Position numbers and translations under genes: made by a program. Under the pieces are notes generated by a model that saw only the letters and a list, made by a program, of their open reading frames with translations, was not told the DNA's origin and did not search any database. DNA of 64,000 bases from Planctomycetota bacterium (GTDB lineage Bacteria > Planctomycetota > MHYJ01 > JACPTZ01), in the NCBI GenBank assembly GCA_016192525.1, contig JACPTZ010000218.1, positions 9,490 through 73,489 on the forward strand. Reading direction: 5' to 3'. Below, one piece after another: positions 15,981 through 54,906 of this stretch; the first letter of the stretch is position 1, and every line of letters starts with the position of its first letter.

Positions 15981-18524
<2,544 letters not shown>

Positions 18525-21578: not shown

Positions 21579-21653
21579 TGGAGCGGCCGACCGGATTCGA
21601 ACCGGCGACGTCCACCTTGGGAAGGTGGCATTCTACCACTGAATTACGGCCGC
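21579..21653 (-). tRNA. tRNA-Gly (anticodon CCC), CCA encoded
   Basis: Minus-strand sequence GCGGCCGTAATTCAGTGGTAGAATGCCACCTTCCCAAGGTGGACGTCGCCGGTTCGAATCCGGTCGGCCGCTCCA folds into a cloverleaf by hand; anticodon loop TTCCCAA. Confidence 0.9.
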
Positions 21654-42184: not shown

Positions 42185-43483
42185 ATGGTCTATGCGAGAT
42201 CTTTCTCTTGTTCCTCGCTCTTGACGGCGCTGGTGATCTCCGTCGCCGCCGCTCAAGACCCTCTCATGGCCCCCGTCTCCGAGTCAAGCGAGGCGGAGGC
42301 TGCAGTGCAGGAGCTCAGAAATCTGCCTGACCCGGGGGACGATTGGGACCGATTGTCGGTTTGCCCCGCAGTCGCCAAGTGTGTCGCAGCAGATTGGCGC
42401 GCCGCCCCTGCGTTGGAGTCCCTGGCGAAGTCACCGGCTCCCCGTTGGGTCAGGGTCGCAGCACTGTACGCCCTTGGTCAGATCGGACTGTCCGCCGCTT
42501 CGCCCCATTCCTGGGCTGACGCCGGCGATCCCGTCCTCGGTGCAGCAATTGCATCCATGCTGGACAATGCAACACGCGCAGGTTCCATGTCCCATGATCT
42601 GCCAGCAACACTCGCTGAGACAGATAGTACATCTGCTCGACTGGTAGAGTTGTTCGGCAAACCCATTACCCTGAGTCCATCTGAAGAACGCAACCGTGTA
42701 GCGACGCTAATCGCCCGTCTCCAGACCTCGTCCTCCATCGGAATTCGCGGTCCGTCTGTCGAACTGCCGGATTCACGGATCATCGCGCTGCTTTCTCTGC
42801 ATTGGGACGAAACGGCCCGACAGATTCGACCGGCGTTGCTCCAGGACAGTGGAGCATTCTGTCGTCGAACGCTCTACGCCACTCTCGCGCTGAGTTCTCC
42901 CGGAGCCCTGGCGGATCGCGGGGACCTACAGCTTGTCCTTACCGATTGCCCGCACATGGAGTCCACCAGTCCCATCGACTCGCTCCTGATGCTCTACGGA
43001 CTCGCCAAGGTCGGCACTCCGGCAGCCATTGCAAAGATGCGCTCGCTGCAGTGTTCCCCGTCGTCTCCATCGCTTGCGGGCATCTTGGAGAGACTGCTGC
43101 GCGACCCGCAAACTCTCGATCTCACGCATCTCATGCAAGACGTCCGCTCAGTCTCGTCGCCCGGAGAAGACAGCCGAGGCGGACGCGGAGCCAATCTCAC
43201 GCACTTTCCCTGGTCTCGCAGCCCGGACCCAGGAAATCCCATGGGGCCGCGCGTAGGAGGGGCGGTGGCGGCCATGACGCCAGATCCGCCGCCGCAGTGG
43301 CCCGAAACAATCACAGCGAGAGAGATTCACCGTAGCAATGGGCCGGATTGTCGCACCCCGGAGCCTTCGAGTTCCCAGCGGAGCAGTCTCGAGGAGACCT
43401 CGTTGGCATCCTGGTTTACGATCGGCCTCGCCCTACTCACCGTTGTCGCTGCCATTGCCTTGTGGCGGCGCGGCAGGCACTAA
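42185..43483 (+). CDS. hypothetical HEAT/ARM-like repeat protein with N-terminal signal peptide and C-terminal TM anchor
   Basis: 432 aa; starts 4 nt after the D1 stop; MVYARSFSCSSLLTALVISVAAA/QD; C-terminal WFTIGLALLTVVAAIALW; visibly lower GC and weaker GC3 bias than neighbours. Confidence 0.55.
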   Translation: MVYARSFSCSSLLTALVISVAAAQDPLMAPVSESSEAEAAVQELRNLPDPGDDWDRLSVCPAVAKCVAADWRAAPALESLAKSPAPRWVRVAALYALGQIGLSAASPHSWADAGDPVLGAAIASMLDNATRAGSMSHDLPATLAETDSTSARLVELFGKPITLSPSEERNRVATLIARLQTSSSIGIRGPSVELPDSRIIALLSLHWDETARQIRPALLQDSGAFCRRTLYATLALSSPGALADRGDLQLVLTDCPHMESTSPIDSLLMLYGLAKVGTPAAIAKMRSLQCSPSSPSLAGILERLLRDPQTLDLTHLMQDVRSVSSPGEDSRGGRGANLTHFPWSRSPDPGNPMGPRVGGAVAAMTPDPPPQWPETITAREIHRSNGPDCRTPEPSSSQRSSLEETSLASWFTIGLALLTVVAAIALWRRGRH

Positions 43484-46261: not shown

Positions 46262-46720
46262 GGAGAATCTTCTGAGCGAACTTGCGCCATCTCGAGTGCG
46301 GGAATCTCCTGATCGGTGCCGATCTTAGGACGGCGATCATGTGAGTGCAAGGCCAATCTCCCCTGGTGATCCGTCAACTCTATTCGTGCGGGCGGTTTGC
46401 CGTTGTTGTTTCCCGCTCCCCTCCGCCACACAGATGGCGGACAGGGGAGGGGAGGGCGTAGGGGGAGGGGCGCGGCCCTTCCCCGTGCTGGCGCGCGCCC
46501 CCCTCGCCCCGGAGGGGCGGCAGAAGCGCTGGCCCACGACCCCGTTCTGCCGCCCCTCCGGGGCTGGGTGCATGCGTTGCGCGTTTCCGGGGGCTTCGCC
46601 CCCGGCTATTCCCTTGGCGCCCCTCCGGGGCGCCGCATGTGCACTTACCCCACCTCTCAAACATGCCACGTGCACCTGGACCTTGGGGGTGTAAGTCAAT
46701 CTCGTCGGCGCACCCTGGAT

Positions 46721-46851
46721 TGTCATCCTGAGCCCCGTAGCACGTGCTACGGGGCGAAGGATCGCCAGCGCACGCGCCTCGGAGCCTCTGGTGTTGGTGA
46801 TCCTTCGCTCCGCGCCGCCGGACGGATCGCGGCGCTGCGCTCAGGACGACA
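46721..46851. repeat. family C nested-palindrome element, copy 3
   Basis: tgtcatcctgagc (46721-46733) ... gctcaggacgaca (46839-46851); contains ccccgtagcacgtgctacgggg and gcgaaggatcgccagcg/ggtgatccttcgc modules. Confidence 0.75.
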
Positions 46852-46934
46852 ACGGAAGGGGCCGCCCCCACAGACGCGCGCTCCTCCGACAAAACTGACC
46901 TGCACCCGGGGCCCGGAATTCCGAAAAAAAACTC

Positions 46935-46963
46935 TTGACACCCTTCCGCCCGGTGGATATAAG
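46935..46963 (+). promoter_or_regulatory. near-consensus sigma70-type promoter upstream of the Cys-leader / sulfate-assimilation unit
   Basis: TTGACA (46935-46940), 17-nt spacer, TATAAG (46958-46963), preceded by an A-tract. Confidence 0.6.
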
Positions 46964-46990
46964 GGCGCGTCTCACGTGTCAGGGAATCCC

Positions 46991-47071
46991 ATGCGCGCGA
47001 ACCTGTCGGCCAATTTGAGCGTTTCGAAGCGGCCCATGGTCCGGCTCGTGGCGATGTGTTGTTGCGGCTAA
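46991..47071 (+). CDS. candidate leader peptide 1, MRANLSANLSVSKRPMVRLVAMCCCG
   Basis: 26 codons, AGGGA 5 nt upstream of ATG; three consecutive Cys codons (47057-47065) two codons before TAA. Confidence 0.5.
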   Translation: MRANLSANLSVSKRPMVRLVAMCCCG

Positions 47072-47119
47072 ACGGCCTCGACCCCTGACACGCTGAAGAC
47101 CCCCCGGAAGAATCCGAAG

Positions 47120-47150
47120 CCTCCAGCCTGTCAGGGCTGGGGGTTTTTTT
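47120..47150 (+). terminator. intrinsic terminator 1
   Basis: 9-bp stem cctccagcc / ggctggggg (47120-47128 / 47135-47143), 6-nt loop, followed by T7 (47144-47150). Confidence 0.7.
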
Positions 47151-47327
47151 GTTGCCCGGGCGGCGGGGCGGTCCCCCGCTCAGGACCCGTGGTCCGGCAG
47201 GGCGGAAGACGGAACGCGAGACTTCTCATCGACCCGGAGTGGACTCTGAACCGCGGGGTCCCGCCCCCTGCGTCCTGACCGTACATCGGGTCGCCGGATG
47301 TGTGACCTCGCCGACAAGGAAAGGCCC

Positions 47328-47441
47328 GTGATCATCCTGAACCTGATCTCCAAGCGCATGGCCATGTGTTGCTGCATGTGCCCGACGGGCAACGGCCCGC
47401 CGACGGCGCCCGGGGTTCGTGTTCGATGGAGACGCGAATGA
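47328..47441 (+). CDS. candidate leader peptide 2, (VIILNLISKR)MAMCCCMCPTGNGPPTAPGVRVRWRRE
   Basis: GTG 47328 after AAGGAAAGG, or ATG 47358; four Cys in five codons (47367-47381); shares SKR..M..AMCCC with leader 1. Confidence 0.45.
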   Translation: MIILNLISKRMAMCCCMCPTGNGPPTAPGVRVRWRRE

Positions 47442-47466
47442 ACCCCTGAAGGCTCCCGAAGGCGAC

Positions 47467-47505
47467 AAGGCCGCTGCCCTCCCAAGGTCAGCGGCCTTTT
47501 TTGTT
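47467..47505 (+). terminator. intrinsic terminator 2
   Basis: 10-bp stem aaggccgctg / cagcggcctt (47467-47476 / 47489-47498), 12-nt loop, T-run ttttttgttgt. Confidence 0.7.
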
Positions 47506-47584
47506 GTCCCCTTTCCCTTGCCCTTTCCCTTGCCCTCGGAGGGAAAGGGCAAGGCAAAGGGAAAGAAGCAGAAAGGAAGAACAG

Positions 47585-48502
47585 ATGCTGGTCTGGCCCC
47601 TCATTCTTACCGGCGCGCTCGTGGGGATTCTCGTGGGACTCACCTCCCTCGGAGGAGGTTCCGTTCTCACCCCCGCCCTGGTCCTCCTCCTGGGCATTCC
47701 CCCGTCTCTCGCCGTCGGGTCGGATGTTCTCATCGCGAGCGTGATGAAACTGGTCGGGGGGGGCGTTTATGCCGCCCGCCGCGCCGTTCACTGGCCCACG
47801 GTCCTGCGACTGTCCTCCGGATCGGTTCCCGGGGCCCTGCTCGGGATCGCCCTCCTGAACCGCCTCCCCAAGGGCGCGCTCGACCTCTTCATCGGACGTT
47901 CCCTCGGGGTCGTCCTCGTTCTGGCCGGGACGGCCACGCTTCTCCGGCTGCTGCGCCGCCCGAGCGTCTCTGAGGCGGCGTCGAAGCCGCCGTCCAGCCC
48001 GTGGACGGTCCTCCTCGGGTTCGTTACGGGTCTGCTGGTGGGAGTGACGAGCATCGGGAGCGGATCGCTCCTTCTCTGCGTCCTCGCCTGGGCGTGGCCG
48101 CTGCGCTCCCAGACGCTCGTCGGCACCGATCTCGTGCACGCCTTTCTCCTCTCCTCGGCTGCGACGGTCGGTCACCTGCTGTCGGGTCGGGTCGACTTCG
48201 CCCTCGCCGGCGCCGTGCTGGCCGGGGCGGTTCCGGGCGTCCTGATCGGCGCCCGGTTGACGTTTGCCATTCCGGAGCGGGCGCTCCGGACCGCCCTCGC
48301 GACACTGCTGGTGGGGGTGGGAACGTACCTGTCCGTCTTCCGGCTTCCGGAGGCGCGGGCTGCCGATGAAGTCTCCGGGCGGCACGGCGGCGCTTCCGCG
48401 CCGCACTCCACCCCCCCCGCGCTGCACTCCGCGCCCCCCGCGCCGCACCCCGGGGGCACGGAGCCGGAGGCGGTTCCATCCTTCAAGGAGTCTCCCGAAT
48501 GA
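47585..48502 (+). CDS. TauE/SafE (DUF81) family anion permease
   Basis: Multi-TM protein GALVGILVGLTSLGGGSVLTPALVLLLGIP; ATG 47585 after GAAAGGAAG; stop overlaps cysH start (ATGA). Confidence 0.8.
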   Translation: MLVWPLILTGALVGILVGLTSLGGGSVLTPALVLLLGIPPSLAVGSDVLIASVMKLVGGGVYAARRAVHWPTVLRLSSGSVPGALLGIALLNRLPKGALDLFIGRSLGVVLVLAGTATLLRLLRRPSVSEAASKPPSSPWTVLLGFVTGLLVGVTSIGSGSLLLCVLAWAWPLRSQTLVGTDLVHAFLLSSAATVGHLLSGRVDFALAGAVLAGAVPGVLIGARLTFAIPERALRTALATLLVGVGTYLSVFRLPEARAADEVSGRHGGASAPHSTPPALHSAPPAPHPGGTEPEAVPSFKESPE

Positions 48503-49203
48503 CCCCGTCCGAACTCCACGCCGCCGCCATCGCCCTCGAAGGCCGGCCCGCCGTCGAGATCCTGCGCTGGGCCGCGGAACGATTCCCCGGCCGGCTTGCC
48601 TTCGCCACGGGCTTCGGGGTGGAAGGGTGCGTCCTGGTCGACCTCATCGCCCGGAACGAAGTCGACGTCGATCTCTTCACCCTCGACACCGGCCTCCTCT
48701 TTCCCGCCACGCTGGAGCTGTGGAAGCGGCTCGAGGAGCGATACGGCGTGGTGATCCGCGGAGTCCGGCCGGCCCGAACGGTCGAGGAACAGGCCTCGAT
48801 CGAGGGCGCCGACCTCTGGGATCGCGATCCTGACCGCTGCTGCCTTCTCCGCAAGGTGCAGCCGCTCCGCGGGGCGCTCCTCGGGTACGACGCGTGGATT
48901 TCGTCGATCCGCCGCGATCAGACCCGCGACCGGGCCGCGGCGGGGGCAGTGGAGCCGGACGGGAAGTTCGGGCTCGTGAAGGTGAACCCGCTGGCCGGCT
49001 GGAGCGCGGAGGAGGTGTGGCGGTACGCGCGGCAGAACGGCGTACCGTACAACCCGCTCCACGACCAGGGATATCCGAGCATCGGCTGCTGGCCCTGTAC
49101 CTCCCCCGTGGCGCCCGGGGAGGACCCGCGGGCGGGGCGGTGGAGGGGACGGGCGAAGAAAGAGTGTGGACTGCATTCCAAGGCGGCGCAGACTGAAGTC
49201 TGA
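48499..49203 (+). CDS. cysH: adenylylsulfate (APS)/PAPS reductase, Fe-S type
   Basis: 234 aa; SIRRDQT, CC pair (DRCCLLRKV), GCWPCT and KECGLH motifs. Confidence 0.9.
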   Translation: MTPSELHAAAIALEGRPAVEILRWAAERFPGRLAFATGFGVEGCVLVDLIARNEVDVDLFTLDTGLLFPATLELWKRLEERYGVVIRGVRPARTVEEQASIEGADLWDRDPDRCCLLRKVQPLRGALLGYDAWISSIRRDQTRDRAAAGAVEPDGKFGLVKVNPLAGWSAEEVWRYARQNGVPYNPLHDQGYPSIGCWPCTSPVAPGEDPRAGRWRGRAKKECGLHSKAAQTEV

Positions 49204-49229
49204 GCCACAACAACCGAAAGGAGACGCTC

Positions 49230-51071
49230 ATGTCATCGACCGCAACCCTGAGAACCGAAACGCAGGACCTTCTGGTGGAGCCGCACGGGGGAACGCTGGT
49301 GAACCGGATCGTGCCGGCGGAGGAGGCCGCCGCCCTGCGCGACCGGGCCGCCGCGCTCCCGACGATCGTGCTCGACGCGCGCGAGCTCGCCGATCTGGAA
49401 CTGATCGCCACCGGCGCGGCCAGTCCCCTCACCGGCTTCCTCGGCGCCGCCGACTACCGGAGCGTGCTCGCCCGGTCGCGCCTCGCCGACGGGACGGTGT
49501 GGCCGCTCCCCTTCACCCTCGCCGTCACCGATGAGGTCCGGGCCCTCCTCGATCCGGGCCGCGAGGCCGGGCTCGTCGACGGCGCCGGACGCATCTGGGG
49601 GATCCTCCGCATTTCCGAGATCTTCCGCCGCGATCCGCGTGAAGAGGCCCGGGCGGTCTACCGCACGGAGGACGAGTCGCACCCCGGCGTGGCGTATCTC
49701 CTTTCCCGTCCCCCCTGGCTCGTGGCCGGTGAAGTGGACGTCCACCCGCTTCGGGCCGATCTCCCCTTCGCCGAACACCGGCTCAGTCCGCGCGACCTGC
49801 GCGAGGCGATCCGGGCGCGCGGGTGGCGCCGGGTGGCCGGCTTCCAGACGCGGAATCCGATTCACCGGGCGCACGAGCATCTCACGAAACTCGCGCTCGA
49901 GGTCACCGACGGGATCGTCATCCATCCCCTCGTCGGCGAGACGAAGAACGACGACGTTCCCGCGGCGGTCCGCTTTCGGGCTTACGAGGCCCTGATCGGG
50001 AAGTACTACCCGAAGGACCGGACGCTTCTCGCCGCCTTCCCGGCCGCGATGAGGTATGCTGGGCCGCGCGAGGCGCTCTTCCACGCGATCGTCCGAAAGA
50101 ACTACGGGATCACGCACCTGATCGTCGGACGCGATCATGCAGGGGTCGGGAAGTTCTACGGGCCGCTGGAGGCGCAGCAGATCTTCGACCGGTTCGGCCC
50201 CGGGGAGGTCGGCGTCACGCCGCTCCGCTTCGAGCCGACCTTTCACTGCCTCGCCTGCGGCAATCTCGCCTCGTCGCGGACCTGCCCGCACGATGCCGTG
50301 GCGAGGCTGGATCTCTCCGGCTCGAAGGTCCGCGAAATCCTGAGGAGCGGCGGGGCCCTCCCGGTGGAATTCACCCGTCCCGAGGTGGCGGAGGTGTTGA
50401 GGGCGCACTACGCAGAGGCCGCTCGAGGAGCGGCGCCGGGCGTACGGAGCGAGCCGGGCCCGCTCGCGGCCGACGGCCGGGGGCCCCTGTCCGCCATCCG
50501 TTCGGCGGAGGCCCCGGCCCTGCGGTCTCCGGAGGCAAAGCCCGGGCACGGATTCATCCTCTGGTTCACCGGTCTCTCGGGCGCGGGAAAGAGCACCCTG
50601 GCGAACGGTCTCAGGGCGCGGCTGGGGACGGGCCGAAGGGTGGAGATCCTCGACGGCGATGAGGTCCGCACCTACCTCTCGAAGGGGCTCGGTTTTTCGA
50701 AGGAGGATCGGGACACGAACATCCGACGGATCGGGTATGTCGCGCGGCTCCTCGCCCGGAATGGTGTGGTGGCCATCACGGCGGCCATCTCGCCCTATCG
50801 CGAGATCCGCCAGGAGGTGCGATCGCTCGCCTCGAAGGACGAGACGCCGTTTGTGGAGGTGTTCGTCAGCGCCTCGATCGACGCCCTGGTGAAGCAGGAC
50901 GTGAAAGGGCTGTACAAGAAGGCGCTCGCCGGCGAGGTGGCGCACTTCACGGGCATCTCCGACCCCTACGAGCCGCCGGATCGGCCCGAGGTGACGGTCT
51001 ACAGCGATCAGGAGAGCATCGAGGAGAGTCTGGCGCGCGTCGAGGCCGCCCTGAGGGAGAGGGGGCTATGA
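49230..51071 (+). CDS. bifunctional sulfate adenylyltransferase / adenylylsulfate kinase
   Basis: 613 aa; ATP sulfurylase QTRNPIHRAHE and GRDHAGVG; C-terminal APS kinase P-loop FTGLSGAGKSTLA. Confidence 0.9.
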   Translation: MSSTATLRTETQDLLVEPHGGTLVNRIVPAEEAAALRDRAAALPTIVLDARELADLELIATGAASPLTGFLGAADYRSVLARSRLADGTVWPLPFTLAVTDEVRALLDPGREAGLVDGAGRIWGILRISEIFRRDPREEARAVYRTEDESHPGVAYLLSRPPWLVAGEVDVHPLRADLPFAEHRLSPRDLREAIRARGWRRVAGFQTRNPIHRAHEHLTKLALEVTDGIVIHPLVGETKNDDVPAAVRFRAYEALIGKYYPKDRTLLAAFPAAMRYAGPREALFHAIVRKNYGITHLIVGRDHAGVGKFYGPLEAQQIFDRFGPGEVGVTPLRFEPTFHCLACGNLASSRTCPHDAVARLDLSGSKVREILRSGGALPVEFTRPEVAEVLRAHYAEAARGAAPGVRSEPGPLAADGRGPLSAIRSAEAPALRSPEAKPGHGFILWFTGLSGAGKSTLANGLRARLGTGRRVEILDGDEVRTYLSKGLGFSKEDRDTNIRRIGYVARLLARNGVVAITAAISPYREIRQEVRSLASKDETPFVEVFVSASIDALVKQDVKGLYKKALAGEVAHFTGISDPYEPPDRPEVTVYSDQESIEESLARVEAALRERGL

Positions 51072-51739
51072 CCGGCGACGCGCACACGGCTGTGTCCGGA
51101 GTCGTCGGGCCCTCCCGTTCCGCCCTGTTCCCCGTGTTCCTGAAGCTCGCCGGGCGAAAGGTCGCGGTCGTCGGCGGAGGTCCCGTGGCGCTTCAGAAGA
51201 TCCGTGCCCTGCTCGAGGCCGGGGCGTGCGTGACGGTGATCGCACCGCGGATCGTTCCGGCCATCGCGGCCCTGGATGTCGTGCTGCAGGGCCGCCGGTT
51301 CGCGCCGGTCGATCTCGACGGGGTGTGGTATGTCGTGGCCGCCGCCCCCCCGGAGGTCAACCGGGAGGTCCGCCGCGCGGCGGATGAGCGGCGGATCTTC
51401 GTGAACGCCGTGGACGACCCCGAAACGGCGACGGCCTATGCCGGGGCGGTCCTGCGGAAGGGGGGCGTGACGGTGGCCGTCTCGACTTCGGGTCACGCCC
51501 CCGCCCTCGCGGGTCTGGTCCGGGACGGACTGGACTCGATCCTCCCGGACGAGATCGCGGAGTGGGCGGCGGAGGCGCGATGGCAGCGGGCGGTGTGGAA
51601 GTCGCAGACCGTTCCGATGGCAGAGCGACGGCCGCGCCTGCTGGAGGCGCTGAACAGGCGATATGCCGCCGTGGAGCCCTTGACGGGGAATTCCGAATAT
51701 CCCCTCTCCCGTTCGGCGTCGCCAAACGGGGGAGGGTAG
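51068..51739 (+). CDS. precorrin-2 dehydrogenase / sirohydrochlorin ferrochelatase (SirC/Met8-like)
   Basis: FPVFLKLAGRKVAVVGGGPVALQKIRALLEAGACVTVIAP Rossmann N-terminus; start overlaps the upstream stop (ATGA). Confidence 0.8.
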   Translation: MTGDAHTAVSGVVGPSRSALFPVFLKLAGRKVAVVGGGPVALQKIRALLEAGACVTVIAPRIVPAIAALDVVLQGRRFAPVDLDGVWYVVAAAPPEVNREVRRAADERRIFVNAVDDPETATAYAGAVLRKGGVTVAVSTSGHAPALAGLVRDGLDSILPDEIAEWAAEARWQRAVWKSQTVPMAERRPRLLEALNRRYAAVEPLTGNSEYPLSRSASPNGGG

Positions 51740-51993
51740 TTCTACTGTCACCGATCACGGGAGTCGTGTCGTAAACGTGGCATTGTAACGGGGACAGACC
51801 GAGTCTCTGAGTAGCGACCGCTCGGCGCCGTCTGCCGAGCGGTCGCGTATCGAAGGGACGGTTGACGCGAACGGCGCTTCGTCTCCGGGCCCGCCCTTCG
51901 ATACGCCCTCCTCGGTCGCCTGCGGCGACCGAGGAGGGCTACTCAGGGCTACGGTTTGCAGGCGCGACCGGCGCGCGAACCGTGACAGTAGAA
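51740..51993. mobile_element. MITE-like nested-palindrome element, family B-related copy 3, inside the operon
   Basis: ta-gTTCTACTGTCAC ... GTGACAGTAGAAg-ta; internal ctgagtagc/gctactcag, cgtatcgaaggg/cccttcgatacg; shares CTACTCRGGGCTACGG with B1/B2. Confidence 0.7.
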
Positions 51994-52007
51994 GTAGATT
52001 GGAGGAC

Positions 52008-52799
52008 ATGATGACCGGTTTCGTCTCCATCATCGGCGCCGGGCCGGGCGACCCGGAACTGCTCACGCTCAAAGCGGCCCGGCGCCTCGCCCAGGCCGAC
52101 CGGGTCCTTTACGACGCCCTCGTGGCGCCGGAGACCCTCGACCTCGCCCCGGCGCACGCCAGGCGGATCTACGTCGGGAAGCGGGCCCGGCGGCGGTCGA
52201 TGAGCCAGGCCGCGATCGAGTGGCTGATGGTGCGGGCCGCCCGCCGGGGGGAGCAGGTCGTGAGGCTGAAGGGCGGAGATCCCTTCGTCTTCGGACGGGG
52301 GGGGGAAGAGGCGCTGGCGCTGGCCGCGGCGGGGATTCCGTTTGAGGTGGTCCCGGGGATCAGCTCATCGATCGCCGCGCCGGCGCTCGCCGGGATCCCG
52401 GTCACGCATCGGGGTCTCACCTCCGCCTTCACCGTCGTCTCCGGCCACGCCCCGGAGGCGTACCGCCCGGTCCTCGACGCGCTCGCGCCGAACTCACTCA
52501 CGGTCGTGGTCCTCATGGGTCTCGCGGAGCGGGGCCGGATCGCGTCCGTCCTGCTCGAACGCGGGTGGAGGCGGGAGACCCCGGCGGCGATTTCACTCTC
52601 GGCCTCGCGCCCGGATGCTCAAACATGGATCGGGACGCTGTCGGAACTGGCGACGGCGGCGGATGGAGCCGAGTCTGAGCCCCGTGCGGGGGTGCTGGTG
52701 GTGGGGGAGGTGGTGTCGCTGGCGGAGCGAATCAGAAATGCCTCAGTGTCTCATCCCGACGCAAGTACTCCAAGGAGACCCCATGCTCTCTCTCGATGA
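52008..52799 (+). CDS. cobA: uroporphyrinogen-III C-methyltransferase
   Basis: IIGAGPGDPELLTLKAARRLAQADRVLYD, GGDPFVFGRGGEE, VPGISS; start ATG 52008/52011 after GGAGGA (the track uses TTG 51999). Confidence 0.9.
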   Translation: MMTGFVSIIGAGPGDPELLTLKAARRLAQADRVLYDALVAPETLDLAPAHARRIYVGKRARRRSMSQAAIEWLMVRAARRGEQVVRLKGGDPFVFGRGGEEALALAAAGIPFEVVPGISSSIAAPALAGIPVTHRGLTSAFTVVSGHAPEAYRPVLDALAPNSLTVVVLMGLAERGRIASVLLERGWRRETPAAISLSASRPDAQTWIGTLSELATAADGAESEPRAGVLVVGEVVSLAERIRNASVSHPDASTPRRPHALSR

Positions 52800-54906
52800 T
52801 CCGAAGACCTTCGGCCCCGCCCGGCTGGGCTTTGCTGACGAGAAGGACGTCGACCTCTTCGTCGACACCCTCGAGAAATTCGAACGGGGCGAAATCGATT
52901 CCGACGCCTGGCGCTCGTTCCGCCTCCTGAACGGTGTCTACAGCCAGCGGCAGGACGAATGGATGATGGTCCGGGTGAAGATCCCGCAGGGGATCCTCAC
53001 GGCGGACCAGCTTCGGGCGCTGGCGGAGGTGGCGGAGCGGTGGTCGAACGGCAAGGGGCACGTCACCACCCGTCAGAACGTCCAGTTCCACTTCGTGAAG
53101 CTGGAGCACGCGGAGGAGGTGCTCCGTCGCTGCGCCGAGGCGGGCCTCACCACGCGCGAGGCCTGCGGGAATTCCGTCCGGAACATCACCACCTGCCCGT
53201 TCGCGGGGACGTCGGCCGTCGAGCCGTTCGATCCGACGCCGTATGCGGAGGCCCTCACGCGACACCTTCTCGGCGGCCCCTGGTCCTCCTCGCTTCCGCG
53301 CAAGTTCAAGATCGCCTTCGGCGGCTGCTGCGGGACCGATTGCGTCCACGCGGCGATCAACGATCTGGGATTCCTCGCCCGGCTGGGTGGCACGGGCGGC
53401 TTGTCCGCCCGTGCCAGCGGCGGCTTGTCCACCCGTGCCAGCGGCGGCTTGTCCGCCCGTGCCCTGCGCGGCTTCCGCCTCACCATCGGCGGCGGCACGG
53501 CCGTCCTTCCCCGGTCCGGCTTTGTCGCGCACGAATTTCTTCCGGCGACGGAGGTCCTCGAAGCGGCCGAGGCGGTGGTGCGGGTGTTCCATCGGATCGG
53601 CGACCCGAAGGACCGTCACCGCGCGCGACTCAAGTACGTCATTGAGCGACTGGGGCAGGAGGCCTTTCTGCGCGAGTATGAAAGGGAGCGCGAGGCGATC
53701 CGGTCGGAGGGGGGGCGGCCGCTGATCCCTGATGTCGGGGAGGATCGCGATGCCTCCCCCGGGCAGGTCCCGATCTCATCGTTGCAGGATGGACGACCGA
53801 AGAGCCGTGACCTGTCCCGCGATCCGCGACCCGCGGCCTCCGATCACCGGTCGGCACCCGCCCCTACGGATTCCGTTCCCGTCCATGATTCAGCCCTTCC
53901 GCGATCCGGTTTCCTCCCGCGACCCGGTTACACCGAGTTCGCCCGCACCAATGTCCGGCCGCAAAAGCAGCCGGGCTTCTCGACCGTGATCGTCCGGCTG
54001 CCGCTCGGAGATGTCACGACAGGGCAGTTCCGCAGCCTCGCCGATCTGGCCGGGCGATACGGTGAGGGCGAGGCGCGGACCACGCACGAGCAGAACGTCG
54101 TCCTGCGCTACATCCCCGACGACCGTCTCGCGAATCTCCACGCGGAGCTGGAGACAACCGGGCTCGCGAGACCGGGCGCCCGGACGGTCGTGGATGTAAC
54201 CTCCTGCCCCGGGGCGGCATCGTGCCGGATCGCCGTCACCGCCTCGCGCGGGCTCGCCTCGCTGCTGGGCGAGTTTCTTGAGAGCCGACCCGACCTCGTG
54301 GCGAAGGCGCCGTCGCTCCATCTCAAGATTTCGGGTTGCCCGAACGGCTGCGGCCAGCATCACATCGCCGGGATCGGCTTCCAGGGTGGGGTGCGACGCT
54401 TCGGCAAGACGGTAATTCCACAATACCACGTGTTTCTCGGCGGCGGCATCTCCATTCCCGAGACGGTAGCACAGGCCTTCCAGCCTGTGCGCGAACCTTT
54501 GCTCGAGCCTGTGTCGCAGCCTGCGCTCCAGCGCGTGCCGGGCACCCCGCTGCCGGCCCCGAACAGCCCCGCAGCGAGGCTCGCGAAGCGAGCCTCTGCC
54601 GCGGGGCGTACCGAGGGGCGGCCGCCGGCGGAAGGCGGTGCCACGTTCGGCCGTCTCGCCGCGCGCATCCCGGCTCGACGCGTCCCGTCGGCGCTGGAGC
54701 GTCTCATTGATCTCTACGCCACGGAGCGCATCGGGGACGAGGCACCGGAGGAGTTCTTCGCCCGGCTCCCGCTCGACCGCGCGACGAAGCTCCTCGCCGA
54801 TCTCGAGGAGTTCGGCCCGGAGGACGTGACCCCGCAAGACCTTGTCGATCTCGGTGAGGAGAAGGCCTACGCGGTCCAGGTCTCCGCCGGGGAGTGCGCG
54901 GTGTGA
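52783..54906 (+). CDS. assimilatory sulfite reductase (ferredoxin-type siroheme/4Fe-4S hemoprotein) with several insertions
   Basis: ATG 52783 after AGGAG; RQNVQFHFV, REACGNSVRNITTCP, TSCPGAASC, ISGCPNGCGQHH; 707 aa with low-complexity inserts including a 3x24-bp repeat. Confidence 0.85.
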   Translation: MLSLDDPKTFGPARLGFADEKDVDLFVDTLEKFERGEIDSDAWRSFRLLNGVYSQRQDEWMMVRVKIPQGILTADQLRALAEVAERWSNGKGHVTTRQNVQFHFVKLEHAEEVLRRCAEAGLTTREACGNSVRNITTCPFAGTSAVEPFDPTPYAEALTRHLLGGPWSSSLPRKFKIAFGGCCGTDCVHAAINDLGFLARLGGTGGLSARASGGLSTRASGGLSARALRGFRLTIGGGTAVLPRSGFVAHEFLPATEVLEAAEAVVRVFHRIGDPKDRHRARLKYVIERLGQEAFLREYEREREAIRSEGGRPLIPDVGEDRDASPGQVPISSLQDGRPKSRDLSRDPRPAASDHRSAPAPTDSVPVHDSALPRSGFLPRPGYTEFARTNVRPQKQPGFSTVIVRLPLGDVTTGQFRSLADLAGRYGEGEARTTHEQNVVLRYIPDDRLANLHAELETTGLARPGARTVVDVTSCPGAASCRIAVTASRGLASLLGEFLESRPDLVAKAPSLHLKISGCPNGCGQHHIAGIGFQGGVRRFGKTVIPQYHVFLGGGISIPETVAQAFQPVREPLLEPVSQPALQRVPGTPLPAPNSPAARLAKRASAAGRTEGRPPAEGGATFGRLAARIPARRVPSALERLIDLYATERIGDEAPEEFFARLPLDRATKLLADLEEFGPEDVTPQDLVDLGEEKAYAVQVSAGECAV

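Follow-up and report, generated by a model that had tools for sequence, protein, structure and literature searches.

The window analysed here, a stretch of 64,000 nucleotides from a contig of a Planctomycetota bacterium, contains a sulfate-assimilation operon that begins with a gene for a TauE-family permease. Between the promoter at 46935 and this gene lie two small open reading frames (ORFs), each carrying a run of cysteine codons and each followed by an intrinsic terminator. Judged from sequence, it is likely that they belong to two ribosome-mediated transcription attenuators in series, which would sense charged tRNA-Cys and gate the operon from that promoter. A duplicated, ribosome-mediated Cys attenuator had been the core proposal of an initial annotation made from the same DNA, and comparative evidence now supports it in the form of (i) relatives that carry the same kind of leader, (ii) an antiterminator found in five tandem loci, and (iii) the conservation of the two units as islands. 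The element is best described as two classical leader-peptide transcription attenuators in tandem that read cysteine codons, and not as a new mechanism; it is one of a widespread set of Cys leaders, so far undescribed, that precede TauE-led sulfate-assimilation operons.

Cysteine-codon leaders in related loci

Relatives were gathered by a TauE protein search, contig look-ups and one metagenome scan, which yielded about 30 distinct loci with a TauE homologue (at least 50% identical) as the first gene of a sulfate-assimilation operon. Their GC content ranges from 43% to 75%, and the gene order is that of the window operon or a subset of it. A scan of a genome collection with the TauE protein returned only two distant loci, in an actinomycetotal metagenome-assembled genome (MAG) and an archaeon, neither with an upstream Cys ORF. 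Nearly all the TauE-first loci have a small ORF with a Cys run and a strong intrinsic terminator between a TTGAC-N17-TAnnnn promoter and TauE; leader ORFs such as AACCCCCMKAPVGPRAAGRV, LCCCCCTEARKGPRAPGLR, ACCCCCCRMREALCLREAA, DCCCTEAHLGPLTDGRV and VCACCCCCMGPPGIPRADGRT illustrate the range, and one MAG labelled Vicinamibacteria by NCBI (L099) carries the leader too. The tandem, two-unit form occurs in five loci: the window, its closest relative L088, and L003, L004 and L087.

The initial annotation had named conservation of the small Cys ORFs in relatives with the same operon as a check, and this conservation is found. A stop-free window of eight codons with at least three Cys codons is present on the operon strand upstream of the first gene in 23 of 25 independent TauE-first loci, compared with 3 of 25 reverse complements and 14% of random segments of the same length from the same loci. 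Three or more Cys codons in succession occur in 14 of 25 leaders and in 0.4% of random segments; a binomial figure drawn from such counts overstates independence, because the loci are related. The more distant sat-first operons, used as a negative control, show a Cys cluster at background level (6 of 29) and no terminators. In the window itself the pattern TGYTGYTGY is found three times on both strands together (0.87 expected), and two of these sites are those of the leader, on the operon strand and 310 nt apart; the third is at 16210-16218 on the minus strand.

Codon choice in the leaders is skewed as well. UGU makes up 71% of the leader Cys codons (26 units) against 26% of those in the long ORFs downstream, a coding control that is approximate since long ORFs in GC-rich DNA can be spurious. 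The bias could reflect selection for slow decoding, or selection against GC-rich structure at the stall site, and it recalls the rare-codon preference of classical leaders. L009 carries its leader (TCCGCMEAQKGPRADGRV plus terminator) twice, at 1103-1248 on the minus strand and at 2330-2476 on the plus strand, one copy before TauE-cysH and the other before a divergent sat-like gene; this is the behaviour expected of a small Cys-leader regulon. L089 (1476-1630, from a MAG labelled Planctomycetales) has the promoter, ORF, GGCCC hairpins and terminator but a single Cys codon (MAMCSAEARRAA), and may be a decayed or differently tuned member.

What is conserved in these ORFs is the presence of Cys codons in a readable frame. 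The codons hold one stop-free frame with an upstream start, while their arrangement varies (CCCCC, CSCC, CCGC, CMAMCMSMC, CACTC, CTGCSC), their number ranges from 1 to 7 per leader, and the non-Cys residues and the ORF length are variable. Outside the Cys run, the first leader ORF of the window (ORF1) differs from that of L088 by 6 amino-acid replacements, 2 synonymous changes and a different stop codon (UAA to UGA). On the 3' side of the Cys run, conservation is at the level of RNA: a 1-nt deletion in L016 alters the peptide and leaves the nucleotide sequence as it was. Codon-level conservation of Cys followed by RNA-level conservation therefore fits a leader peptide that overlaps regulatory RNA segments.

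The same observations bear on two other explanations. If the ORFs encoded functional micropeptides rich in Cys, such as ones with metal or redox activity, each with its own terminator, the sulfur-gene neighbourhood would be a matter of co-function. The SKR..AMCCC common to both peptides of the window points in this direction, as does a loosely conserved motif after the Cys run (C-x-P-x-G-x-G-P-P / E-A-x-x-G-P-R-A), but neither the length, the termini, the Cys number nor the other residues are conserved, replacements exceed synonymous changes in ORF1, and the post-Cys motif coincides with RNA pairing segments and, at the nucleotide level, survives the L016 frameshift. Functional micropeptides are thus highly improbable. 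A switch made of RNA only (a riboswitch, or a leader bound by a protein or a small RNA), in which the ORFs and their Cys codons are incidental to a conserved U/G-rich RNA, would account for the conservation after the Cys run, the L016 deletion included, and for the segment GGGCCCCCGCGCCGACGGUCGU, which is highly conserved in one subgroup. It is nevertheless very unlikely: the Cys codons keep one frame and an upstream start despite their varied nucleotide pattern, their enrichment is specific to frame and strand, the conserved RNA segments are fully explained as regions 1-4 of an attenuator, and no Rfam family matches. Rfam gave no relevant match (SAM riboswitches, T-box, amino-acid leaders) over 46300-47700 even at E up to 10, and neither in the whole window nor in 16 related loci did a cis-regulatory family reach its gathering score.

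A comparison of the window with L088 agrees with the attenuator reading. Unit 1 (46917-47186) is 82% identical and unit 2 (47304-47505) 90%, against 72.5% for the TauE-cysH coding DNA, and the spacer between them (47186-47304) is not alignable. This supports the units as conserved islands under purifying selection.

The two units and their predicted operation

The features of the leader are collected in Table 1. Several of them had been listed in the initial annotation and stand where it placed them: the promoter, the 26-codon ORF1 ending AMCCCG-stop, the GC stem plus T7 that follows it (47120-47150), the second ORF with MAMCCCMC ending at 47441, and the stem plus T-run behind that ORF (47467-47505).

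Table 1. Features of the leader region and the downstream operon, in order of position.
Feature	Coordinates	Strand	Evidence or detail
Sigma-70-type promoter, TTGACA (46935-46940) - 17 nt - TATAAG (46958-46963)	46935..46963	+	sequence
Unit 1 region 1, 5'-UTR segment CACGUGUCAGGGA, complementary to region 2; overlaps the SD-like AGGGA of ORF1	46973..46985	+	
Leader ORF1, 26 codons, MRANLSANLSVSKRPMVRLVAMCCCG, ending AMCCCG-stop	46991..47071	+	sequence
Unit 1 region 2, CCCCUGACACGCUGA, predicted antiterminator 5' strand	47082..47096	+	duplex energy, conservation
Intrinsic terminator T1; region 3 is formed by its 5' arm and loop (47120-47136)	47116..47150	+	
SD-like AAGGAAAGG for ORF2	47316..47324	+	sequence
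Leader ORF2, ..ISKRMAMCCCMCPTGNGPP..	47328..47441	+	stop 47439-47441
Unit 2 hairpin P1 (regions 1:2), UGCCC-GAC-GGGCA	47379..47391	+	-7.0 kcal/mol
Unit 2 region 2, GGGCAACGGCC, predicted antiterminator 5' strand; P1 3' arm begins it	47387..47397	+	
Central irregular hairpin spanning the ORF2 stop, bringing regions 2 and 3 together	47400..47463	+	-26.8 kcal/mol
Intrinsic terminator T2, GGCCGCUG...CAGCGGCC plus U6; 5' arm is region 3	47469..47503	+	-19.5 kcal/mol
Near-perfect 65-nt palindrome of CCCTTTCCCTTGCC repeats, between T2 and the TauE ribosome-binding site	47504..47568	+	
Operon predicted to be regulated: TauE-family permease, cysH, sat-cysC fusion, sirC-like, cobA-like, sulfite reductase	47585..54906	+	Pfam

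Transcription would start near 46970, which gives unit 1 a 5' untranslated region (5' UTR) of about 21 nt with the Shine-Dalgarno (SD)-like motif AGGGA 5 nt upstream of the ORF1 start. The Cys codons UGU UGU UGC occupy 47057-47065, and the counterparts of ORF1 also carry Cys codons, ending in MCCCA (L088), MCCRPLVRTP (L003), RCCRCR (L087) and CTGCSCRIP (L004). The stem of terminator T1 spans 47120-47143, is extendable to 14 bp over 47116-47147 and is followed by U7 at 47144-47150; the stem has 10-14 bp and a stability of -18.5 to -23.3 kcal/mol. Terminators lie at the equivalent position in L088, L003, L004 and L087.

Downstream of ORF1, CCCTGACA lies at 47083-47090 and TGTCAGGG at 47129-47136, and the initial annotation had noted that they could pair (CCCUGACA:UGUCAGGG). 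This pairing is present in all five tandem loci and extends past a 1x1 loop into a second helix of GCUG (47092-47095) with CAGC (47124-47127). The duplex of region 2 with 47123-47136, both helices counted, amounts to -21.6 to -22.9 kcal/mol, compared with -18.7 to -23.3 for T1, and an anchored comparison finds the two-helix antiterminator in five of five tandem loci. Helix 2 covaries with the 5' arm of T1, reading GCUG:CAGC in the window, L088 and L003, GCCG:CGGC in L004 and CGCG:CGCG in L087, and helix 1 becomes CCUG(G)CA:UGCAGG in L004. Ranked against other segments, the unit-1 duplex had been unremarkable (0.25-0.70) when region 3 was ended at the loop and its GGG was missed; the anchored comparison includes it.

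A competing pairing in the 5' UTR had escaped the initial annotation. The motif TGTCAGGG stands a third time at 46977-46984, where it is complementary to 47083-47092, and in the minimum-free-energy fold of 46970-47160 as free RNA region 1 is paired with 47083-47092. The three alternatives of unit 1 are closely balanced (1:2 -23.1, 2:3 -22.9 and 3:4 -23.3 kcal/mol), and the 5'-UTR segment 46973-46985 can be interpreted as an anti-antiterminator. Its GUCAGGG is present in L003, and L004 has GCCAG instead, which matches its own CUGGC.

When Cys-tRNA is plentiful, the ribosome would complete ORF1 and depart; 46973-46985 would then capture 47082-47096, or the terminating ribosome would block that segment, T1 (47116-47150) would fold and transcription would end. 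When Cys-tRNA is scarce, the ribosome would stall on UGU-UGU-UGC (47057-47065), and the free segment 47082-47096 would pair with the 5' arm and loop of T1 (47123-47136), blocking the terminator and letting the polymerase read through. The annotated version of this switch, in which a ribosome at the stop codon masks the antiterminator segment, holds as far as the pairing goes; the masking itself is geometrically marginal, with the Cys run ending one codon before the stop and 10 nt separating the stop from the antiterminator segment. What sets a stalled ribosome apart from a terminating one in unit 1 is probably persistence together with the 5'-UTR competitor, and not simple masking.

Unit 2 repeats the decision in what would be the textbook four-region layout. 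Among the starts considered for its ORF (ORF2), GTG at 47328 is likeliest and is preferred over the in-frame ATG at 47358 that had been offered beside it (in-frame ATGs of the region lie at 47298, 47358 and 47364); L088 keeps the same SD and start arrangement, GAAAGGAA followed by GTGATC. The Cys codons of MAMCCCMC are at 47367-47375 and 47379-47381, and the counterparts of ORF2 are CMAMCMSMCPVGSGPP (L003), LCACTCPEGSGSP (L004), VCCPCPEGSGPP (L087) and MSMCCCMCRTGNGPP (L088). The last Cys codon lies within the 5' arm of hairpin P1, and in L003, L004 and L087 a C-to-U change in P1 keeps the pairing as G-U. The initial annotation had missed an antiterminator for this unit, and one is found: GGGCAACGGCC (47387-47397) can pair with GGCCGCUGCCC (47469-47479), the 5' arm of terminator T2, at -21.7 kcal/mol, compared with -7.0 for P1 and -19.5 for T2. 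The complementarity is kept in L003, L004 and L087, where all changes are wobble-compatible. T2 has its stem at 47469-47496 and T6 at 47497-47502; it is identical in L088, and homologous hairpins are present in L003, L004 and L087.

A ribosome stalled on the Cys codons 47367-47381 would cover the 5' arm of P1, and the freed GGGCAACGGCC would pair with GGCCGCUGCCC in the 5' arm of T2. A ribosome that does not stall would cross the antiterminator 5' strand on its way to the stop at 47439, and T2 would form. Placed in series, the two switches should multiply the repression ratio.

The terminators and the sequence behind T2 are also where control of translation has to be considered, that is, Cys-sensing upstream ORFs that act mainly on translation or mRNA fate, with stalling exposing the ribosome-binding site (RBS) of the first gene and the hairpins being structural or stabilising. 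The sole experimentally dissected polycysteine small ORF (sORF) works through SD sequestration (10.1101/834739), and in the window a very stable palindrome stands just 5' of the TauE RBS. The U tracts on the unit-2 hairpins of L004 and L087 are weak, and the group C loci (L018, L021-L026) have Cys ORFs without a canonical terminator. However, hairpins with runs of 5-9 U are conserved behind the ORFs in nearly all loci, the conserved complementarity aims at the terminator 5' arm and not at the downstream RBS, the palindrome is absent from L088, and the TauE SD (47573-47579; start at 47585) lies outside it. Control mainly at translation is therefore unlikely.

The palindrome is not mentioned in the initial annotation. 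The segment that bears it (47497-47600) has a folding energy of about -51 kcal/mol. The palindrome occurs nowhere else in the window and is missing in the closest relative, which gives it the look of a recent insertion, and it is uncertain whether it is part of the regulatory element. Rfam matches of miRNA type at 47497-47580 merely reflect it and are spurious. A third type of leader (L018, L021, L022, L023, L025, L026) has two serial Cys sORFs, MVMPCAGCIACCMPAGG... and ...SLASRKCACCRRPVECRV..., with no canonical hairpin-plus-U terminator found after the second; it may work otherwise, for instance through translational control or Rho.

Structure across the family and its limits

The larger family consists of leaders of the form CCC...GGGCCCCCG...GGCCCGGGAGG-terminator (loci L008-L029 and L091-L099). 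In 21 leaders (unit 2 and the family), the 45 nt after the Cys run were matched to the terminator 5' arm; the median empirical rank is 0.02 when windows of equal length from the respective locus serve as background. Of 23 leaders tested, most have a hairpin that begins 0-8 nt downstream of the final Cys codon's first base, a position that a stalled ribosome would cover, and 5-14 nt of the hairpin's 3' arm are shared with the antiterminator strand. L089 is an exception, with a hairpin start at +11, and so is unit 2 of the window, for which the automatic pick has no overlap. The leader ORF extends across the long antiterminator's 5' strand, and its stop lies 17-43 nt short of the terminator. By these sequence features, the arrangement of unit 2 and the wider family is the classical one of 1:2, 2:3 and 3:4 pairings. 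In an alignment of nine sequences, pairing amounts to 87.5% in the antiterminator (33-55% when slid) and to 99% in the terminator, and RNAalifold on 16 sequences recovers the terminator alone.

The switch was also modelled by folding each leader with a 28-nt ribosome footprint masked at each codon, and by folding truncated transcripts. For about half of the units, a footprint at or just after the Cys codons changes the terminator probability or 5'-arm sequestration as expected (examples are L008, L014, L017, L027, L028, and unit 1 of L087 and of L088), and the shifts in the window units are modest. Equilibrium folding cannot decide a kinetic switch, so this result is taken as compatible with attenuation and not as proof of it; the folding of truncated transcripts and the ranking of duplexes sequence by sequence are more informative than the equilibrium probability of the terminator.

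A profile built with nhmmer from 16 family members recovers all of them, the held-out L098 and the second copy in L009. The tandem clade of the window shares with this family the order of parts (promoter, Cys ORF, hairpin, antiterminator segment, terminator, TauE-first sulfate-assimilation operon), the genomic context and a loosely similar post-Cys motif.

Several points weigh against the reading of the element as a pair of attenuators. The family profile misses the window, L088, L003, L004, L087 and L097 at E up to 10, and the tie between the window clade and the large family therefore rests on architecture and context, not on demonstrated homology. Covariation is sparse: it is seen in helix 2 of unit 1 over the five tandem loci, and in the nine-sequence alignment the antiterminator is not distinguishable from column shuffles, a weakness that follows from most paired columns being invariant. 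Folding for mutually exclusive structures, a check that the initial annotation had proposed along with covariation, does find competing pairings in both units, but at equilibrium it gives no clean switch, and the terminator dominates at most ribosome positions in several units, both window units included. In unit 1 the stalled and terminating footprints differ by only 4-12 nt, because the Cys codons end one codon before the stop, and the footprint of a ribosome terminating on ORF1 extends hardly as far as 47082. L088 has one mismatch in the 5'-UTR competitor, which is not clear in L087. To the poor U tracts of the unit-2 terminators in L004 and L087 can be added the single Cys codon of L089 and the mere two of L097. 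Every source is a metagenome assembly, and the mechanism assumes that transcription and translation are coupled in these phyla.

Known leaders and the surrounding sequence

Ribosome-mediated attenuation is textbook knowledge for trp, his, leu, thr, ilv and pheA. The element resembles these enterobacterial attenuators in its short leader ORF with codons for what the pathway finally makes, in the four-segment RNA (1:2, 2:3, 3:4) whose 3:4 pairing is an intrinsic terminator, in a predicted stall site that overlaps or abuts segment 1, and in the preference for the rarer synonymous codon. It differs in that the amino acid is cysteine, that two full units stand in series, that unit 1 has its segment 1 before the ORF, in the 5' UTR, and its Cys codons beside the stop, and that no Rfam model exists. 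The S-box (SAM-I) riboswitches and Cys T-boxes of Firmicutes serve the same pathway with the same output, terminator against antiterminator, but they sense through an RNA aptamer or a tRNA-binding leader, whereas the sensor here would be a translated ORF.

The initial annotation had stated that cysteine regulons are not described as being under Cys-codon leaders, a view that is outdated. In Mycobacterium smegmatis, experiments have shown that polycysteine sORFs attenuate translation and work by unmasking a Shine-Dalgarno sequence (Canestrari et al. 2020, 10.1101/834739), and in M. tuberculosis poly-Cys sORFs are treated as cysteine-responsive attenuators of sulfur genes (PMC13402693; PMC13236596). 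For Actinobacteria, the predicted Cys-codon leaders had no terminators and were proposed to depend on Rho (Seliverstov et al. 2005, PMC1262725), and for cysS of Deinococcus deserti a 10-aa leader with 2 Cys was predicted before the tRNA synthetase gene (de Groot et al. 2014, PMC4007540). With the mycobacterial 'Cys ribulon' (10.1101/834739; PMC13402693) the element shares, by features alone, polycysteine sORFs upstream of cysteine or sulfur genes, and its proposed logic is alike: Cys-tRNA is sensed through ribosome stalling and repression is relieved when cysteine is scarce. Unlike the dissected mycobacterial case, which acts on translation through SD unmasking and has no terminator, the conserved features here are a terminator and a covarying antiterminator, and the window holds terminators and a TauE SD outside the palindrome rather than an SD-sequestering duplex without a terminator. 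The mycobacterial sORFs are leaderless, whereas ORF1 of the window has a predicted short 5' UTR with an SD-like motif (-10 hexamer up to 46963, ATG from 46991). The leaders predicted in Actinobacteria (PMC1262725) and before Deinococcus cysS (PMC4007540) were proposed to be attenuators and likewise consist of a short ORF whose Cys codons lie close to the stop, before cys operons or cysS, but they are not tandem and do not stand on TauE-cysH-sat operons. In four relatives the leader ORF starts 7-12 nt after the -10 hexamer (L097 1240-1280, L098 1248-1290, L099 1305-1345, L004 2516-2560), and these transcripts may begin at the start codon or almost there, in the manner of the polycysteine sORFs of mycobacteria.

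Two decision units in series on one transcript are familiar from tandem riboswitches and T-boxes. The Salmonella mgtCBR leader has two complete attenuators of this kind (PMC3641672); unlike such tandem switches, both units here appear to read the same signal, and since both share SKR..AMCCC they look like a duplication.

The literature search found nothing on terminator-based Cys leaders, or on such elements in Planctomycetes or Acidobacteria, although its coverage was incomplete and an earlier description is possible. It is somewhat more probable than otherwise that the leaders form the first canonical, terminator-based class of cysteine attenuators, the 'missing' Cys counterpart of the trp, his and leu leaders, with conservation in Planctomycetota- and Acidobacteriota-labelled lineages at least (GC 43-75%) and, in the window clade, a duplication that makes a switch of two stages and multiplies the response. 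As sensing by Cys-codon upstream ORFs is already established in mycobacteria, the advance in concept is moderate.

Classical ribosome-mediated attenuation would be extended to cysteine and to these two phyla, which to our knowledge are not known for leader-peptide attenuation; we know of almost nothing on gene regulation in them, and of no characterised cysteine regulator. If the reading is right, it implies tight transcription-translation coupling in poorly studied phyla, for which the leaders would be indirect evidence. A Cys-codon ORF plus terminator upstream of TauE-cysH could serve as an annotation signature for the cysteine/sulfate regulon in MAGs, and the tandem form would be a natural case of serial attenuators with identical input, useful for learning how a response is sharpened by switches in tandem. 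Leader RNAs that end prematurely (about 180 nt for unit 1) might act in trans, as has been shown for rnTrpL of Sinorhizobium.

The genes downstream of the leader are as the initial annotation had named them, all on the same strand. Pfam assigns, in order, TauE; PAPS_reduct; PUA_2, ATP-sulfurylase and APS_kinase; NAD_binding_7/Sirohm_synth_M; TP_methylase; and NIR_SIR. The TauE protein is identical to an NCBI entry labelled 'MAG: Planctomycetes bacterium', as found by protein search, and the contig has 68% GC.

The promoter is kept as TTGAC-N17-TATAA in all close relatives, and it stands at the matching relative position in L088, L003, L004, L087 and L097. A promoter scan skipped it in the window because its -10 hexamer ends in G; the promoter-like site that the scan did report, at 47085-47113, was dismissed, as it sits within unit 1 and is not conserved. 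A Cys-rich frame at 42553-42622 on the minus strand is incidental, being antisense within a 432-aa ORF. The only Rfam match at gathering score in the 64-kb window is a tRNA gene at 21582-21653 on the minus strand. In the stretch 46587-46632 on the plus strand (also 46506-46564) the Rfam Acido-Lenti-1 RNA motif has one match below threshold (27.3 bits against a gathering score of 37), and inverted repeats near it lie just 5' of the promoter region.

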